A stretch of 64,000 bases of DNA from Gaiellaceae bacterium (lineage in GTDB: Bacteria > Actinomycetota > Thermoleophilia > Gaiellales > Gaiellaceae), in assembly GCA_036403195.1 (NCBI GenBank), contig DASWRL010000047.1, forward strand, positions 1,462-65,461, in the 5' to 3' direction. Numbering within the stretch: position 1 is the stretch's first letter; each line of letters starts with the position of its first letter. A model generated the notes under the pieces. It was not told the DNA's origin. It searched no databases and saw only the letters and a list, made by a program, of their open reading frames with translations. Below, piece by piece: positions 54,042 through 60,133 of the stretch. The translations under genes and the position numbers were made by a program.

Positions 54042-54611
54042 GTGCTCGCGGCGGCGTGCGCGTTCGCCGTCGTGCTCTGGGGCGGCTACGGCCGGGGCTG
54101 GCACTGGACGGGATTCGAGCCCGACGCCAAGCTCTGGGACTGGCTCCACGTCTTCGTGCTGCCGCTCGCGTTCGTCGCAGGCCCGCTCTGGCTTCGGCAT
54201 CGCGCCCGGCTCGGCCGCAGGCATCGACTCGCCGCGGCCGCGCTCGTCGCGTGCTTCGGCGTGCTCGTCGCGGCGGGGTACGCGTTCGACCTTCGCTGGA
54301 CGGGTTTTCCGGGCAACGAGCTCTGGGACTGGCTCGAGCTCCTCCTCCTGCCGCTCGCGATCGCACTCATCCCCGTGTGGACCGACCTCACGGGCGGAGT
54401 GCGCCGCAGGCACGTCGCCGCCGCCGCGTTCGCGACGATGTTCCTCGCCGTCGCGATCGCCGGCGGCTACGGCTACCACTGGCATTGGACCGGCTTCCGC
54501 GGGAACACGCTCTTCGACTGGATCCAGCTCGTCATCGCACCGCTGCTGGTCCCATTCGTCCTCGTCCCGCTCACGGAACGGGCGATGACGCCGGACGAGG
54601 GAAAGAGATGA
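54042..54611 (+). CDS. Integral membrane protein built from three internal repeats (GYxxxWxWTGFxxNxLWDWLxLxxLPL)
   Basis: GTG start. Repeats at GGYGRGWHWTGFEPDAKLWDWLHVFVLPLA, AGYAFDLRWTGFPGNELWDWLELLLLPLA and GGYGYHWHWTGFRGNTLFDWIQLVIAPLL. Confidence 0.65.
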   Translation: MLAAACAFAVVLWGGYGRGWHWTGFEPDAKLWDWLHVFVLPLAFVAGPLWLRHRARLGRRHRLAAAALVACFGVLVAAGYAFDLRWTGFPGNELWDWLELLLLPLAIALIPVWTDLTGGVRRRHVAAAAFATMFLAVAIAGGYGYHWHWTGFRGNTLFDWIQLVIAPLLVPFVLVPLTERAMTPDEGKR

Positions 54612-54665
54612 GGGGCCGCGGTACTCCCGACGGCTGCGGCTTCCGCGGCTTCCGCGCGGCCCCTC
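54610..54665. terminator. 11-bp perfect inverted repeat (gaggggccgcg ... cgcggcccctc) spanning the stop codon, with a 34-nt loop
   Basis: Seen directly. The long loop makes terminator function uncertain. Confidence 0.3.
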
Positions 54666-54717
54666 GCACACACCCTACCCAGAGCAGAGGGTTGCGCCAT
54701 CCCCGGTACGAGGGAAA

Positions 54718-54761
54718 ACAGGACGAGCGAGGCTGCCGCATGAGCCTCGCTGCCGTCCTGT
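54718..54761. terminator. Strong hairpin (8 bp + 2-nt bulge + 9 bp, 8-nt loop) flanked by AAAA / TGTT. Bidirectional-terminator-like.
   Basis: acaggacgagcgaggct gccgcatg agcctcgctgccgtcctgt. On the minus strand it is followed by TTTTCCCT. Confidence 0.5.
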
Positions 54762-54876
54762 GTTCTACCCCCCAAATGTCCTTCGCGCCCCGCCGCATCG
54801 GGCGCGAGGGAACACGCCAATGATCCGTCCGGGCCACCGCTTCACACAATCACTCACGCGGGGTTGACTGCAGTAC

Positions 54877-55992
54877 TTGACTAGAGCCCTCTGCCTCGTC
54901 GCGCTGTCCGTCCTCGCCGCAGGCTGCGGCTCGGCGGCGCCGCACCGGCTTCGGGTCGGCGCGGTCGAAGACGTGGCGAAGGCGGGCGACGCGAAGGCTG
55001 CGATGCAGCTCGCGGCCCGGTCCGGCTTCGACGTCGTCGTGCTCAGCTCGACCTGGACGCGCGGCCTCGACGCCCCGGCCGCCGGCGAGCTCGAGTCGCT
55101 GCGGCGCGCCGCCGCCGCGGCGGTCGACGCCGGCGTCGCGCCGGTCGTCGCGATCTACTCGTTCAGCTCGAGCACGCCACTCGACGAGAGCGGCCGTGAG
55201 GAATTCGCGGCCTACGCGGCCGCGATCGTGCACGCGCTGCCGCAGCTGCACGCAGTGATCGTCGGCAACGAGCCGAACCTGAACCTCTTCTGGCTCCCGC
55301 AGTTCACCCCCGACGGCCAGGATGCAGCGGCGCGGGCGTTCGAGGCGCTGCTCGCGCAGACGTACGACGCGGTGAAGAAGGCGCGCTCGGACGTCGAGGT
55401 GATCGGCGCCGGCCTCGCCGCGCGCGGCTCCGACGATCCGCAGGCCGCACGGCAGACGCATTCGCCGACGCGCTTCCTCCTCGATCTCGGCGCGGCGTAC
55501 CGCGCATCGGGCCGGCGGCGGCCGATCATGGACGCGCTCTCCCTCCATCCGTACGGCGAGACGCCGCGCGTGCCGCCGACGCTGAGGCACCCGCACTCGA
55601 CGTCGCTCGGGATCGCCGACTACGAGAAGGTGCGCGAGCTGCTCGGCCGGGCGTTCGGCGGCACCGCGCAGGACGGCCGCGACCTGCCGATCGTCTACGG
55701 CGAGTACGGCGTCGAGACGCGGATCCCGCCCGCCAAGGCGGCCCTCTACAGCGGCAGCGAGGTCGTCGAGGCCGTGCCGGAGCAGACGCAGGCGCGGTAC
55801 TACCGCTCCGCCCTCGAGCTCGCCGCCTGCCAGCCGACGGTCGAGCTTCTCCTGTTCTTCCACGTCCAGGACGAGCCGCGCCTCGAGGGGCTGCAGAGCG
55901 GGACGCGCTACGCGGACGGCTCGCCGAAGACGAGCATGGCGCCGGTTCGTGCCGCGATCCGCGCCTGCGCCCACTCGTGCTGCGGCGGGTGA
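54877..55992 (+). CDS. Lipoprotein, glycoside-hydrolase-like (clan GH-A TIM-barrel-like)
   Basis: TTG start. Lipobox LSVLAAGCGS. IVGNEPN motif and YGEYG later in the sequence. Confidence 0.65.
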   Translation: MTRALCLVALSVLAAGCGSAAPHRLRVGAVEDVAKAGDAKAAMQLAARSGFDVVVLSSTWTRGLDAPAAGELESLRRAAAAAVDAGVAPVVAIYSFSSSTPLDESGREEFAAYAAAIVHALPQLHAVIVGNEPNLNLFWLPQFTPDGQDAAARAFEALLAQTYDAVKKARSDVEVIGAGLAARGSDDPQAARQTHSPTRFLLDLGAAYRASGRRRPIMDALSLHPYGETPRVPPTLRHPHSTSLGIADYEKVRELLGRAFGGTAQDGRDLPIVYGEYGVETRIPPAKAALYSGSEVVEAVPEQTQARYYRSALELAACQPTVELLLFFHVQDEPRLEGLQSGTRYADGSPKTSMAPVRAAIRACAHSCCGG

Positions 55993-56069
55993 CCACGGTT
56001 TGCGTTCGGGCGCCGCACGGGAAGGAACTGACCGCCGCTCGACCCGACCCCCGTCCGCGAGCTCGACGA

Positions 56070-57557
56070 ATGGCGACACACCGAGCCTCACCCGACCCCT
56101 CGACCGTCGATACGCGCCTCTCGACCGGCGTCGCCGGGCTCGACACGATCCTCTGCGGCGGGTTCCTTCCCGGCCGCACCTACATGGTGCGGGGCGAGCC
56201 TGGGGTCGGGAAGACCGCGCTCGGGCTCCACTTCCTGGCCGACGGCGCGGCGCGCGACGAGCGGGTCCTCTTCCTGACACAGGGCGCAACGCAGGAGGCC
56301 GTCCGCCAGGACGCCGCGTCGATCGGCGTGCCGATGGACGGCGTCGACTTCCTCGACTTCACGCCCGACCCGAACGAGTTCGAGGTCGCCGACACCTACG
56401 ACGTCTTCGAGCCAGGCGACGCCGAACGGACGCGGTACGTGTCGACCGTCGTGGCCGCGGTGCGCGAGACCCGCCCGACGCGGGTGTTCCTCGACGCGCT
56501 GACGCAGGGGCGGCACCTCGCCGAGGACGTGGTCGAGTTCCGGCGGCAAGCGCACGCGCTGTTGCGGTTCTTCGTCGGCGAAGGCGCGACCGTCGTGTTC
56601 GCGTCGGGGAGCTCCGACCGCCGGGCCGACGAGGACCTGCAGTTCATGAGCGACGGCGTCCTCCACCTCGAGTACTCGCCCCAAGGCGGCAGGATCGTCT
56701 CCGTCACGAAGCTGCGCGGGTCCCCCTTCCGCCTCGGACGCCACTCGCTGCGCATCACCGACCACGGCCTCGAGGTGTACCCGCGACTCGTTCCCGAGGC
56801 GCACGCGCGGCCGTACCGCGACGAGCAGATCGGAACCGGGATCGAGCGCCTCGACGTGCTGCTCGGCGGCGGCATCGAGCGCGGGTCGATCAGCCTCGTG
56901 ACCGGCCCGAGCGGCGTCGGGAAGACGACGCTTGCGACGCAGTTCGCGAAGGAGGCCGCGCTGCGCGGCGAGCGATCGGTGATCTACACCTTCGAGGAGG
57001 CGACGGCGACGTTCGTGCATCGGTCGGAGGCGATCGGCATGCCGATCTCGAAGATGGTCGCGGCGGGGTCGCTCTCGATCGTCGAGGCGGAGCCGCTGGA
57101 GTACACCGCGGACCAGTTCGCGATCGCGGTCCGCGAGGAGGTGGAGCAGCGGGAGGCGAAGCTGGTCGTCCTCGACAGCCTGTCGGGGTACCGGCTGGCG
57201 ATCCGCGGCGAGAACCTCGTCGAGCACGTCCACGCGCTGTGCCGCTACCTGCGGAACATGGGCGCGACCGTGATCGTGCTCTACGAGGTCACGTCGGTCA
57301 CCGGCGACTTCCGCGCGACCGAGGTCGGGCTCTCCTACCTCGCCGACAACATCGTGTTCCTCCGCTACGTGGAGATCGACAGCGAGCTTCGCCGGGTCAT
57401 CGGAGTCCTCAAGAAGCGGTCGACGGATTTCGAGAAGAAGCTGCGGGAGCTGACGATCACGGCGCACGGCATCGAGGTGGGCGAGCCGCTCACCGGGCTG
57501 CGCGGGATCCTGCGCGGCGTGGCGGACCGGGTCGACGGCTCGTCCCGCGGCGACTGA
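56070..57557 (+). CDS. KaiC-family double RecA-like ATPase
   Basis: Two KaiC-type domains: STGVAGLDTILCGGFLPGRTYMVRGEPGVGKTALG and GTGIERLDVLLGGGIERGSISLVTGPSGVGKTTLA. The C-terminus reads IGVLKKRSTDFEKKLRELTI. Confidence 0.9.
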   Translation: MATHRASPDPSTVDTRLSTGVAGLDTILCGGFLPGRTYMVRGEPGVGKTALGLHFLADGAARDERVLFLTQGATQEAVRQDAASIGVPMDGVDFLDFTPDPNEFEVADTYDVFEPGDAERTRYVSTVVAAVRETRPTRVFLDALTQGRHLAEDVVEFRRQAHALLRFFVGEGATVVFASGSSDRRADEDLQFMSDGVLHLEYSPQGGRIVSVTKLRGSPFRLGRHSLRITDHGLEVYPRLVPEAHARPYRDEQIGTGIERLDVLLGGGIERGSISLVTGPSGVGKTTLATQFAKEAALRGERSVIYTFEEATATFVHRSEAIGMPISKMVAAGSLSIVEAEPLEYTADQFAIAVREEVEQREAKLVVLDSLSGYRLAIRGENLVEHVHALCRYLRNMGATVIVLYEVTSVTGDFRATEVGLSYLADNIVFLRYVEIDSELRRVIGVLKKRSTDFEKKLRELTITAHGIEVGEPLTGLRGILRGVADRVDGSSRGD

Positions 57558-57565
57558 GGGGGCCG

Positions 57566-58621
57566 ATGCCGCGCGTCCTCCTCCTCGTCCACCACCGGGG
57601 CAACCGGCGACTGCTCCAGACGTGGGTCGAGCAGTCGCTGCGCGCGGACGCGATCTCCGCGCCGGAGACACCCGACGACGACGTCGACCTCGTCGTCGCA
57701 GACGCTGCGGCGTTCGCGCGCGACCGTGACCGGATCGAGCGGCTGCGCAGCCGCTCGCGACCCGCGTTCCTCCCGTGCCTCCTGGTCGCGACGCCCCGCG
57801 AGGCCGAGCGGCTCACGCTCGAGAGCTGGCGTCAGGCGGACGACGTCGTCGTCACGCCGATCCGGCCGGAGGAGCTGCGGATCCGGCTCGAGCGGCTGAT
57901 GTCGCAGCGCGCCGACAGCCTCGCGACCGAGGCCGAGCGCACCGAGCTGCGGCGCTCGAACGTCGACCTCGAGCGGTTCGCGTTCGTCGCCGCGCACGAG
58001 CTCGTCGCGCCGCTCACCGTCGTCCGCGGCGCCGTGCAGACGGTCGGCGCACGCTTCACGGGCGGCGACGAGCCGGCGAAGGCCGTCCTCGAGACCGCCG
58101 TCGAGGGCTGCGAGCGGATGCAGGTCCTGATCGAGAACATCCTCGATCTCTCCCGCGCCGGTCGCGGCGGCTCGCGGCAGGAGGTCGCGACGACGGCGCT
58201 CGTCGACGACGTGTGCGCGGAGCTCCGCGACCGCGCCGCCGCGAGCGGCACCGTCGTCACCTACGCCGACCTTCCGGTGGTGACGGCCGACCCGGCGCAG
58301 CTCCGGCTCGTCTTCCGGAACCTCATCGCGAACGCCGTCAAGTTCGCACGGCCCGGCGTGCCCGCCCGGGTCGAGATCACCGCCGCGCGCAGCGGCGCGC
58401 ACTGGCAGTTCTGCGTGGCCGACAACGGGATCGGGATCGAGGACGACGACCGCCAGAAGGTCTTCGACCTCTTCAACCGCGCGGGCCGGTCGAACCACGT
58501 CCCGGGCACGGGGATCGGCCTCGCGATCTGCCAGCGCATCGTGGAGCGCGCCGGCGGCCGGATCTGGATCGAGCCCGGTGACGAGCAGGGAACGGTCTTC
58601 TGCTTCACGGTCCCCGCGTAG
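57566..58621 (+). CDS. Histidine kinase with an N-terminal pseudo-receiver domain
   Basis: ATG lies 8 nt after the KaiC stop. The receiver-like fold lacks the DD pocket (LLLVHHRGN) and the conserved Lys (VVTPIRP). H-box FAFVAAHELVAPL. N/G boxes NLIANAVKF, DNGIGI and GTGIGLAICQ. Confidence 0.88.
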   Translation: MPRVLLLVHHRGNRRLLQTWVEQSLRADAISAPETPDDDVDLVVADAAAFARDRDRIERLRSRSRPAFLPCLLVATPREAERLTLESWRQADDVVVTPIRPEELRIRLERLMSQRADSLATEAERTELRRSNVDLERFAFVAAHELVAPLTVVRGAVQTVGARFTGGDEPAKAVLETAVEGCERMQVLIENILDLSRAGRGGSRQEVATTALVDDVCAELRDRAAASGTVVTYADLPVVTADPAQLRLVFRNLIANAVKFARPGVPARVEITAARSGAHWQFCVADNGIGIEDDDRQKVFDLFNRAGRSNHVPGTGIGLAICQRIVERAGGRIWIEPGDEQGTVFCFTVPA

Positions 58622-58708
58622 CGCGCTCCGGCCGCACTCGTGTTTTTCGCGGCCATGCCGATTAGAAGTAGTACGTCGCCGCCTTGAAGCTCATACGGAG
58701 GCCCTGCC

Positions 58709-58909
58709 ATGGCTCAACCCGACCCGCGTCACCCGAACGATCCCGAGGAAGTCGCCCGCACGCACGCCCGTGAGGTCGCCTCCCTGTCGGCCGCCGAGCA
58801 GCAGAGCCTCCGACGGCTGCTCGACGACGCGCTCGCACGTATCGGGCCGGGCCCGGACGACGGCGCCGGCGCAGCGCGTCGCGACGGCCGGGGGAGGCCG
58901 CGGGACTGA
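58709..58909 (+). CDS. Small hypothetical protein (66 aa)
   Basis: GGAGG RBS before the ATG. GC3 is moderately high. No family recognised. Confidence 0.35.
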   Translation: MAQPDPRHPNDPEEVARTHAREVASLSAAEQQSLRRLLDDALARIGPGPDDGAGAARRDGRGRPRD

Positions 58910-58930
58910 GCGTGAGCGGCCTCCCCCGGC
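58887..58930. terminator. Perfect 15-bp stem hairpin (gccgggggaggccgc / gcggcctcccccggc, 14-nt loop) between convergent genes
   Basis: Seen directly. It overlaps the 3' end of the 66-aa ORF. Confidence 0.5.
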
Positions 58931-58943
58931 GGACGGGCGCGCC

Positions 58944-59384
58944 TCAGGCGTTGCAACCGTCGGGCTCGCCCGCGGCGACGTTCGCCTGCGACGGCTTGCC
59001 GATCCCGAGGTAGAGCGCGTAGAGCGTCACCCGCTTCGTGCCGTCGTTGCGGGCGAGGTGGACGTGGTTCGCCGGCTCGACGAACGACTGCCCCTTCCCC
59101 ACCTTGAACGGCTTGCAGCCCCCGACGGACGGGTCGAACACGGTGAGCGTCCCGCCCGTCACGACGACGGCGACCGGTGCGCCGTGTGTGTGCCAGCCGA
59201 AGTTGCCGCCCGGCTGGATCGTGATCGAGTCGAGCACCATCGACCCCGTCTGCGCGCGGATGGTCGTCGCCTGCATCGCGCCCACGGCCATCGCCTTCGC
59301 CATGATCGGCGGCTCCGACGCCGACGACGCCGTCGCGCCGGCCAGCGCACAGACGAAGAGCACTCCGAGCACCTTGAGCTTCAT
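58944..59384 (-). CDS. Secreted cupin-domain protein
   Basis: Signal peptide MKLKVLGVLFVCALAGATASSA. Cupin motif GWHTHGAPVAVVVTGG...VEPANHVHLARNDG. Confidence 0.7.
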   Translation of the reverse strand: MKLKVLGVLFVCALAGATASSASEPPIMAKAMAVGAMQATTIRAQTGSMVLDSITIQPGGNFGWHTHGAPVAVVVTGGTLTVFDPSVGGCKPFKVGKGQSFVEPANHVHLARNDGTKRVTLYALYLGIGKPSQANVAAGEPDGCNA

Positions 59385-59467
59385 GTCGTCCTCCTGTCGT
59401 TGATGACGCAGGGGACGCTAGGGGGCGCCTCTTTGCGCGCTGTTTGCGCGCGCTTTGCGGGCGCGGC

Positions 59468-60133
59468 TCAGTCGACGCCGACGATGAACACCGCGACGGC
59501 GACGTACTGGCACACGAGCGCGACGATCGTCAGAGCGTGGAAGAGCTCGTGGTAGCCGAAGACGCGCGGCAGCGGGTCCGGGCGGCGGCGCGCGTAGACG
59601 ACGGCGCCCGCCGTGTAGGCGAGCCCTCCCGCCCCGAGCAGCACGAGGGGGGCGATCCCCTCGTTGTGGGCGAGCTGCGGCATCGCGACGACGCCGGCCC
59701 AGCCGAGGGCGACGCCGACCACCGCCGACAGCCACTTCGGCGCCGCGACCCAGCACATCTTCGCGAGCGTCGCGACGATCGCCCCGCTCCAGACGACGGC
59801 GAGCACCGTCGAGCGCCAGGCGCCGTGGAGGCTGATCAGCGCGACCGGCGTGTACGTCCCGGCGATCAGGAGGAAAACGCCGGCGTGGTCGGCGCGGCGC
59901 ATCCAGAGCCGGCCGCGCGGCCCCCACGTGACGCGGTGGTAGAGCGTGCTCGTCCCGAGCATGAGGCTCGCCGTGACCGCGAACGTCGCAGCGGCGAACG
60001 CGTGGGCGGCGGGGGCAGACGCGACGAAGAGGATGCCGACGACGCACGACACGCCGAATGCGACGGCGTGCAGAACCCCGCGAAGCTTCGGGCGCTCGCT
60101 GACATCCCCGCCGATATCGGCCGTGTCGATCAT
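59468..60133 (-). CDS. Hemolysin-III/PAQR-family 7-TM channel protein
   Basis: KLRGVLHAVAF..., STLYHRV, DHAGVFLLIAGTYTP and GYHELFHALTI. ATG overlaps the upstream stop (4 nt). The track ORF to 60412 is over-extended. Confidence 0.88.
   Translation of the reverse strand: MIDTADIGGDVSERPKLRGVLHAVAFGVSCVVGILFVASAPAAHAFAAATFAVTASLMLGTSTLYHRVTWGPRGRLWMRRADHAGVFLLIAGTYTPVALISLHGAWRSTVLAVVWSGAIVATLAKMCWVAAPKWLSAVVGVALGWAGVVAMPQLAHNEGIAPLVLLGAGGLAYTAGAVVYARRRPDPLPRVFGYHELFHALTIVALVCQYVAVAVFIVGVD

Follow-up and report, generated by a model that had tools for sequence, protein, structure and literature searches.

A KaiC-like ATPase paired with a pseudo-receiver histidine kinase: a candidate KaiB-independent signaling unit in a Gaiellaceae bacterium

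Introduction

To our knowledge, KaiC homologs far outnumber true clocks, and the question of what such a protein does in the absence of KaiA or KaiB is raised by a locus in the genome of a Gaiellaceae bacterium (GenBank assembly GCA_036403195.1, contig DASWRL010000047.1). The window, by which we mean the whole stretch of DNA analyzed, is 64 kb (64,000 nucleotides [nt]) long with a G+C content of about 71%, and it carries two adjacent genes on the plus strand, one for a double-domain KaiC-like ATPase of 495 amino acids (aa) (positions 56070 to 57557) and one for a cytoplasmic histidine kinase of 351 aa (positions 57566 to 58621). An earlier inspection of the letters alone, hereafter the sequence-only reading, had described the two as a KaiC-type ATPase coupled to a kinase with a degenerate receiver domain. 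The answer that we favor, with moderate confidence, is that the kaiC-like and kinase genes make up one signaling unit independent of KaiA and KaiB, in which a ring of the KaiC-like protein would be read by the N-terminal pseudo-receiver of the kinase.

KaiB-free pairs of a KaiC-like protein and a kinase have already been described, namely, LbKaiC2 and its partner (PMC11680916) and the pair of environmental Pseudomonas (bioRxiv 10.1101/2022.01.26.477890); new here is a minimal actinobacterial pair with a fully Glu-less CI domain. In the literature that we searched, we found no account of a pseudo-receiver as the conserved partner domain of KaiC, of its absence from Pfam, or of its many outputs.

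Results

The first gene encodes a two-domain KaiC homolog with a degenerate CI domain

Codon-position G+C supports both genes, and the coordinates, the two-gene structure, and the 8-nt gap given by the sequence-only reading were borne out. PF06745 matched the KaiC-like protein in two stretches (Pfam, E = 2.5e-71), the NCBIfam KaiC models aligned over residues 15 to 489 (E = 3e-76), and the top solved-structure matches were all KaiC, aligned over the full length; the protein consists of tandem RecA-like KaiC domains with a Walker A motif in each. The NCBIfam matches are full-length and below cut-off: NF006799 and TIGR02655, the circadian KaiC equivalogs, gave scores of 256.9 and 170.5 bits where their cut-offs are 408 and 546, respectively. 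The assembly holds only this one two-domain KaiC, its other, weak PF06745 matches lying on different contigs. A DNA repair ATPase of the RadA/Sms or RecA type misread as KaiC is an explanation to which we give almost no credence: weak partial matches to the P-loop regions of RadA, RadB, RecA, and DnaB do exist, but TIGR00416 (RadA) reached 70.9 bits against a cut-off of 403 and covered residues 15 to 95 only, about 80 residues around the P-loop (E = 9e-20 for the partial RadA match), and the protein has neither a zinc finger nor a Lon-like domain. Since only the KaiC models match over the full length, the RadA/Sms reading was rejected and the original assignment to the KaiC family kept.

In a residue-level alignment to solved KaiC structures, T70-Q71-G72-A73-T74 of CI (positions 56277 to 56291) lies opposite T-F-E-E-T of KaiC, so that G72-A73 sit at E77-E78, the catalytic glutamates of CI that are needed for hydrolysis. 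The sequence-only reading had put TQG in place of this pair; the loss of both glutamates was correct, and the register was one residue off. CI retains its Walker A motif GEPGVGKT (residues 42 to 49; positions 56193 to 56216), whose G42, G45, G47, K48, and T49 do not vary across the clade described below, together with D142, the Asp of Walker B, and K214 and R216 of the Lys/Arg finger. As CI combines an intact Walker A, Walker B Asp, and Arg finger with the loss of its two catalytic glutamates, it should bind nucleotide without hydrolyzing it.

CII looks catalytically competent. Motif matching and the clade alignment place its Walker A motif GPSGVGKT at residues 279 to 286 (positions 56904 to 56927), and the catalytic F-E-E, which had been reported as kept, is indeed present at residues 308 to 310 (positions 56991 to 56999), with E309-E310 opposite E318/E319 of KaiC; within the clade, F308 and E310 never change, and E309 has a conservation of 90% or more. 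D369 and K449/R450 are retained as well. In the phospho-site region, TEVGLSY (positions 57318 to 57338), structure alignment sets T417, S422, and Y423 opposite T426, S431, and T432 of KaiC; T417 and S422 are conserved, the T432 equivalent is a tyrosine, and neither S422 nor Y423 varies within the clade. The stretch that had been quoted for this region, GLSYLADNIVFLRY, is present, as are GEPGVGKT, GPSGVGKT, and FEE. The C terminus is about 20 residues shorter than that of canonical KaiC, in the KaiA-binding region.

The only sensor-like part of the kinase is a pseudo-receiver

Pfam places HisKA at residues 136 to 200 of the kinase and HATPase_c at residues 242 to 350, with no transmembrane segment or other known sensor domain. 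The phospho-accepting His144 lies in the H-box AAHELVAPL (positions 57989 to 58015), as judged from the HisKA match and from alignment to solved kinases, and HATPase_c (positions 58289 to 58615; Pfam and solved-kinase alignment) contains the N box RNLIANAVKF, the G1 box DNGIGI, and the G2 box GTGIGLAIC. Its H-box His and all three of these boxes being intact, the protein is a HisKA-class histidine kinase.

Residues 1 to 135 gave no Pfam match even at E <= 10, and a word-based homolog search with this N-domain, which returned only 4 proteins, was too insensitive; because Pfam was negative, profile and structure methods were used instead. When 47 homologous N-domains (alignment A2) were made into a profile, it matched many receivers, among them the PleD receiver domains (E = 3.8e-15). 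The AlphaFold2 (AF2) model built on the same alignment (predicted local distance difference test [pLDDT] score, 93.5) has the (beta-alpha)5 order of a receiver with alpha2 missing, and its alpha5 is a single long helix, residues 101 to 133, directed toward the dimerization and histidine phosphotransfer (DHp) domain. The top 50 Foldseek matches listed for the N-domain were all receiver or receiver-like (CheY-fold) domains. On these three lines of evidence, the receiver-like domain (residues 1 to about 100) and the long helix running into DHp span positions 57566 to 57970.

The residues of receiver phosphochemistry are mostly gone from the window domain. The DD pair is replaced by H9-H10 and the Lys (K109) by T97, A75/T76, at the place of T/S87, is ambiguous, and D46, the D57 equivalent, is kept. 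Across the 47 family members, the second acidic residue occurs in 8 and the Lys in 4, and N13, D41, D46, P70, D92, and P98 are near invariant. Because the receiver fold is present and most of the phosphochemistry residues are not, the N-domain is a pseudo-receiver, of a family with its own signature. The sequence-only reading had concluded as much from LLLVHHRGN (kinase residues 5 to 13) and VVTPIRP (residues 95 to 101), both of which are present, and the lack of DD and Lys that it saw is confirmed by the AF2 model, Foldseek, the family profile, and the residue tallies.

The N-domain could instead be an atypical but phosphorylatable receiver rather than a dock for KaiC, receiving its phosphate from the kinase itself, from another kinase, or from the KaiC-like protein, and gating the core as in REC-HisKA hybrids. 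Speaking for this, the D57-equivalent Asp is found in 43 of the 47 family members, including the window protein, and the first acidic residue of DD in 25; moreover, a small receiver-like protein encoded beside kaiC in other lineages (class B, described below) keeps D, D, S, and KP, the D57-equivalent Asp included. However, receivers need the DD pair and the Lys for Mg2+ binding and phosphoryl chemistry, and besides the substitutions and low tallies just given, the Pfam Response_reg model does not match the window domain and reaches only 8 of the 47 members, weakly. We therefore regard a phosphorylatable receiver as unlikely and continue to treat the domain as a pseudo-receiver that would dock on KaiC.

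Two clock kinases were considered as models for this architecture. A SasA-like thioredoxin fold came into question since NF006800 (PRK09303), a "histidine kinase" model that we take to be the SasA model, matched the kinase; the match covers the kinase core only (121 bits against a cut-off of 342), and the receiver fold found by Foldseek excluded a thioredoxin fold for the N-domain. The CikA-type architecture (GAF, HisKA, HATPase, and C-terminal pseudo-receiver) was not found either: the protein carries its pseudo-receiver at the N terminus and has no GAF domain, and the genome searches described below gave no KaiB. The likeness to CikA drawn by the sequence-only reading is a loose one, as the pseudo-receiver of CikA is C-terminal and binds KaiB.

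The KaiC-like protein belongs to a clade separate from KaiB-linked KaiCs

At E <= 1e-60, the KaiC-like protein has more than 2,700 matches in the database. Among the named hosts are many filamentous cyanobacteria, Chloroflexota, Gemmatimonadota, Acidobacteriota, Armatimonadota, Bipolaricaulota, Spirochaetota, Bacillota, a few Proteobacteria, and many haloarchaea. In a maximum-likelihood tree, the window protein groups with that of an uncultured Actinomycetes metagenome-assembled genome (MAG) inside a 56-row clade (98% support in the Shimodaira-Hasegawa-like approximate likelihood ratio test [SH-aLRT]) from which all KaiB-linked KaiCs are set apart. Identities run from 46 to 61% within the clade and from 25 to 31% against the KaiB-adjacent KaiCs of the same genomes. 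CII F-E-E and the phospho-site S-Y are conserved throughout the clade. The commonest CI motif is T-L-G-E, in which one Glu is kept; in the closest relatives of the window protein, where CI reads TQGAT or SHGPT, the second CI Glu is lost too.

In cyanobacterial genomes, a clade copy with 46 to 54% identity to the window protein is found together with a canonical, KaiB-adjacent KaiC whose identity is 28%. The sequence-only reading had placed the KaiC-kinase pair in a non-cyanobacterial lineage; the pair is real, and the clade is not confined to such lineages, as many cyanobacteria carry a member beside canonical kaiABC.

The kaiC-like gene is linked to a pseudo-receiver gene whose output domain varies

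The 56 clade loci come from Actinomycetota, Cyanobacteriota, Chloroflexota, Gemmatimonadota, Acidobacteriota, Pseudomonadota, Bacillota, Spirochaetota, and haloarchaea. A direct homolog of the N-domain is encoded within about 2 kb of kaiC in 48 of them, usually immediately downstream, and in five haloarchaeal loci and one cyanobacterial locus the pseudo-receiver gene lies divergently upstream of kaiC. An iterated profile found a receiver-like gene directly downstream in a further 6 loci, and in the remaining 2 the contig ends about 200 nt past kaiC; a receiver-like neighbor is thus present in 54/54 loci with downstream sequence. The linkage is held over very large phylogenetic distances while all other neighbors change, and co-conservation of the two genes, on which the sequence-only reading depended, extends across phyla and domains.

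What follows the pseudo-receiver differs from locus to locus. In most clade loci, as in the window, it is fused to HisKA-HATPase; other fusions are to a PAS-kinase, GGDEF, PAS-GAF-HD, and PAS-GAF-BAT-HTH_10. A pseudo-receiver profile search of 1.84 billion cluster representatives (50% identity clusters) returned 1,470 proteins at E <= 1e-10, of which 283 also passed E <= 1e-30, with the domain almost always at residues 1 to 123 of proteins of 126 to 1246 aa. Among the best 94 profile matches, 59 have HATPase_c and others have SpoIIE, GGDEF, or GerE; HisKA_3 kinases are also found among the C-terminal outputs. Variable outputs behind a constant pseudo-receiver are what an input module with a single unchanging partner should show, here a KaiC-coupled module tied mostly, though not absolutely, to KaiC. 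In a reverse test, five pseudo-receiver proteins were picked regardless of KaiC, and three of them proved to have a two-domain KaiC and a small receiver-like protein encoded just upstream, two of these three loci also carrying a NarL-type regulator downstream.

That the two genes are merely co-expressed, the pseudo-receiver being an autoinhibitory or dimerization module and the KaiC-like protein acting elsewhere, e.g., as a stress-response ATPase, seems to us improbable. The pseudo-receivers of CikA and ShkA do inhibit their own kinases (PMC12632262), KaiC-like proteins in Pseudomonas broadly affect stress resistance (bioRxiv 10.1101/2022.01.26.477890), and the other two of the five reverse-test proteins have no KaiC nearby. 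Contact between a KaiC-like ring and the pseudo-receiver nevertheless accounts better for a linkage that persists while other neighbors change and for an output that varies while the pseudo-receiver stays constant, and direct binding of KaiC to its partner kinase has been obtained in published Pseudomonas experiments (bioRxiv 10.1101/2022.01.26.477890).

In many lineages, a stand-alone receiver-like protein of 113 to 124 aa, the class B protein mentioned above, is encoded between kaiC and the pseudo-receiver gene (e.g., L009:5565-5915, L027:6458-6808, L206:2575-2940, and L209:3134-3508), which is the position that kaiB has in kaiBC operons. No class B ortholog was found in the window genome, where the search gave only the receivers of ordinary response regulators, at 41 bits or less; the genome has roughly 14 proteins with a receiver domain.

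Several single loci are worth recording. In two haloarchaeal loci (L012:6677-8644 and L015:6603-8216), the KaiC-linked pseudo-receiver is fused to GAF-BAT-HTH_10, preceded by a PAS domain in L012 and not in L015; this is the architecture of bacterio-opsin-activator-type regulators, and the KaiC-like protein would in those haloarchaea directly feed a transcription factor. GGDEF fusions, some of them including GAF, and a PAS-GAF-HD_5 fusion occur in a cyanobacterium, a Bipolaricaulia MAG, Marinobacter, and Anaerolinea (L028:6572-7525, L036:5120-5965, L065:6126-7274, and L038:4621-6441), and in these four hosts they would link the KaiC-like protein to turnover of cyclic di-GMP. In Scytonema sp. 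PMC 1070.18 (L016:4036-6063), one frame runs from KaiC (approximately residues 1 to 327) into the pseudo-receiver, entered at its "FDLCI" strand, and then into the kinase core, which implies an in-frame deletion or fusion joining the kaiC-like gene to the partner kinase gene. On the L206 contig, about 2 kb after a first set of KaiC, pseudo-receiver kinase, and NarL-type regulator genes, there is a second two-domain KaiC-like gene (L206:7388-8932) preceded by two single-domain receiver genes.

KaiA and KaiB are not detected, and the KaiC-like protein was not found in the related genomes sampled

KaiB (PF07689) and KaiA (PF07688) had no match anywhere in the assembly (2.88 Mb in 96 contigs, 90.4% complete), and the same searches were positive for both proteins in Synechococcus elongatus, which extends to the whole genome the absence of kaiA and kaiB that the sequence-only reading had noted for the window. 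Among 23 other pair-carrying genomes, KaiB was not above the cut-off in 17 and was present in 6; in the latter, kaiB is on another contig, beside a different, KaiB-type KaiC. No KaiB was found in any of the seven named haloarchaeal genomes searched.

A true KaiBC-type hourglass or circadian timer would require kaiB to lie in the roughly 10% of the genome that is not assembled. The completeness of 90.4% and the six other carriers that encode KaiB somewhere leave room for this, but the KaiB of those carriers adjoins its own KaiB-type KaiC, and the haloarchaeal genomes and most other carriers have none; in addition, the window protein lies outside the KaiB-linked clades, has lost the CI Glu, and scores below the circadian equivalog cut-offs. 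A hidden kaiB is accordingly very improbable in our judgment, and the pair is presumably non-circadian, as the sequence-only reading had called it.

The KaiC-like protein was not found (E <= 1e-60) in the 36 same-genus and 24 same-order genomes sampled, and metagenomic relatives are known at 81 to 85% identity. A synteny (empty-site) comparison around the ortholog of the upstream lipoprotein gene in four same-genus genomes showed no other flanking window gene to be conserved; besides the lipoprotein, the sole match was that of the kinase core to an unrelated kinase in L204. These four comparisons demonstrate neither insertion nor loss. Absence from the 60 related genomes, nonconserved synteny, and the patchy tree together suggest that the pair is an accessory, horizontally moving signaling cassette, and it was probably acquired horizontally.

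A sister clade pairs KaiC-like proteins with hybrid kinases

The sister clade (about 37% identity) is an abundant proteobacterial family of KaiC-like proteins from Pseudomonas, Xanthomonas, Stenotrophomonas, Sphingomonas, and Rhizobium, and its partner is a hybrid kinase with the order N-domain, PAS, HisKA, HATPase, and REC. The N-domain is present in 78/80 loci and has no Pfam match. Its model (pLDDT score, 88.8) gave only receivers as top Foldseek matches, and it has "APxGRD" instead of DD.

The surroundings of the pair

The two genes are separated by an 8-nt spacer, GGGGGCCG (positions 57558 to 57565), between the TGA stop codon of the kaiC-like gene and the ATG of the kinase gene, and a Shine-Dalgarno-like GAGGGGG overlaps that stop codon; together, these imply cotranslation. 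Upstream, a lipoprotein gene (positions 54877 to 55992, plus strand) ends 78 nt before the kaiC-like start. Its product, whose signal peptide ends in LAAGC, has a glycosidase-like NEPN motif and no Pfam match, and 39 of the 40 other same-genus genomes searched carry one to six paralogs. The downstream neighbors are convergent, from the gene at positions 58944 to 59417 (minus strand) onward; this first one encodes a secreted protein of 158 aa with a signal peptide and, by eye, cupin-like "GWHTH...HLARN" motifs. Neither the lipoprotein gene nor the 158-aa gene recurs beside KaiC homologs elsewhere, and the unit is therefore taken to be the kaiC-like and kinase genes alone. A promoter and terminator scan of positions 54600 to 59600 gave nothing above shuffled expectation.

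Discussion

The mechanism that we propose starts from a KaiC-like protein that is most likely a hexameric ATPase, in which CI would be a scaffold that binds nucleotide, and CII would carry the ATPase activity and possibly be a Ser autokinase acting on the Ser equivalent to S431. The kinase, having no sensor domain of its own, would dock on the KaiC-like ring through its N-terminal pseudo-receiver, and the nucleotide or phosphorylation state of the ring would pass along the continuous alpha5-DHp helix to the HisKA/HATPase core. The core would then change over between autokinase and phosphatase activity, its target being a response regulator whose gene lies at another place in the genome. Candidate inputs are energy charge, temperature, and an hourglass-type timer. 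Such a logic resembles that of SasA or CikA, with a different adaptor domain and without KaiB.

Several observations weigh against this proposal. Contact between the KaiC-like protein and the kinase, like the activity of both in the clade of the window protein, is predicted from sequence, and no cognate response regulator is linked to the pair within the window. As LbKaiC2 shows no detectable autophosphorylation, a readout of phosphorylation state may not exist. The two reverse-test proteins that lack a nearby KaiC count here as well, and the class B protein inserted in many relatives means that contact with KaiC could be indirect elsewhere. The Pseudomonas parallel has its own difficulties: the authors of that work label the interacting segment a PAS domain (bioRxiv 10.1101/2022.01.26.477890), homology between the window and Pseudomonas-type N-domains is weak (hhalign probability, 46%; E = 2e-4; collinear over 128 columns), and the class A pseudo-receiver hidden Markov model gave no significant N-domain match in the 80 Pseudomonas-type loci. 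Support for a common origin of the two N-domain families comes only from the shared fold and the marginal hhalign score, and we infer from sequence that the KaiC-binding segment of the Pseudomonas kinase may be a pseudo-receiver.

If the pseudo-receiver is indeed a KaiC-binding input module, the LbKaiC2 and Pseudomonas observations would be explained in one frame, and a new domain family would be defined for annotation. The locus itself is a minimal version of what is seen across a large clade: a CI ring predicted to be dead for hydrolysis and a kinase whose only sensor is the pseudo-receiver. A broader view, which we hold tentatively and do not quite believe on balance, is that LbKaiC2-type KaiCs and the N-terminal pseudo-receiver family constitute a widespread, horizontally mobile, KaiB-free system in which the pseudo-receiver would be a universal ring reader driving whichever output it is joined to, be it a histidine kinase, a diguanylate cyclase, an HD phosphodiesterase, a PP2C phosphatase, or a helix-turn-helix (HTH) regulator, that the Pseudomonas-type sister clade would follow the same logic, and that docking of a pseudo-receiver on KaiC would be the ancestral arrangement, older than the output of the cyanobacterial clock through KaiB, SasA, and CikA.

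The nearest described system is LbKaiC2 (LBWT_17950) of Leptolyngbya boryana, which multimerizes, has a low, temperature-dependent ATPase activity, showed no detectable autophosphorylation, and is followed after 3 nt by a kinase gene, LBWT_17960 (PMC11680916). Like the window protein, it has two domains, a degenerate CI catalytic pair, the CII Glu-Glu, a single phospho-site Ser, no KaiA-binding tail, and a kinase gene a few bases downstream, and it is about 26% identical to S. elongatus KaiC (PMC11680916), compared with 28% between the window protein and cyanobacterial KaiC1s. The spacing of its E69, E304-305, and S417 (offsets of 235 and 348 from the CI Glu) equals that of the cyanobacterial clade members, whereas canonical KaiC has offsets of 240 and 353; judged from published residue numbers, spacing, and features, the clade appears to include LbKaiC2. 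LbKaiC2 differs in having one CI Glu left, compared with none in the window protein, and in living alongside a full kaiABC clock, whereas neither KaiA nor KaiB was detected in the window host. In the LbKaiC2 paper, neither the kinase's N-terminal domain nor the distribution of the pair was analyzed (PMC11680916).

In environmental Pseudomonas, no KaiB was found in 1,255 genomes, KaiC and kinase are co-conserved, and in P. putida residues 1 to 138 of the partner kinase are enough for KaiC binding (bioRxiv 10.1101/2022.01.26.477890). That module resembles the window pair in lacking KaiB, in joining a KaiC-like gene and a kinase gene in one operon, and, if our model is right, in binding KaiC through the N-terminal part of the kinase; the species fall in the sister clade, whose partner kinases begin with a receiver-fold domain without DD. 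It differs in its KaiC (about 37% identity, with F-D-E in CII), in its hybrid partner kinase, in N-domains that are only marginally alignable to ours, and in the linked genes for single-domain response regulators, CsrA, or exopolysaccharide (EPS), which are not linked at the window.

With SasA and CikA of S. elongatus, the window kinase shares a dedicated noncatalytic adaptor through which the state of KaiC sets, or in our case would set, the kinase, and in CikA that adaptor is likewise a pseudo-receiver. The SasA adaptor has a KaiB-like thioredoxin fold, whereas that of the window kinase has a receiver fold. In CikA, the pseudo-receiver stands at the C terminus, after a GAF domain, and has fold-switched KaiB, not KaiC, as its binding partner; that of the window kinase is N-terminal and fused to the DHp helix, in a genome without detected KaiB. 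Finally, the archaeal KaiC-like hubs (Makarova, Galperin, and Koonin 2017, as cited in PMC5847659) are, as far as the cited account describes them, KaiC-family ATPases wired to two-component or other signaling domains without KaiB, a likeness strengthened by the haloarchaeal clade members that pair KaiC with pseudo-receiver-PAS-GAF-BAT-HTH regulators. Those hubs are reportedly for the most part single-domain or inactivated KaiC-like proteins with REC fusions, whereas the window protein has two domains and belongs to a clade that archaea share with bacteria; the two-domain protein CirC of Haloferax may be a member of that clade.

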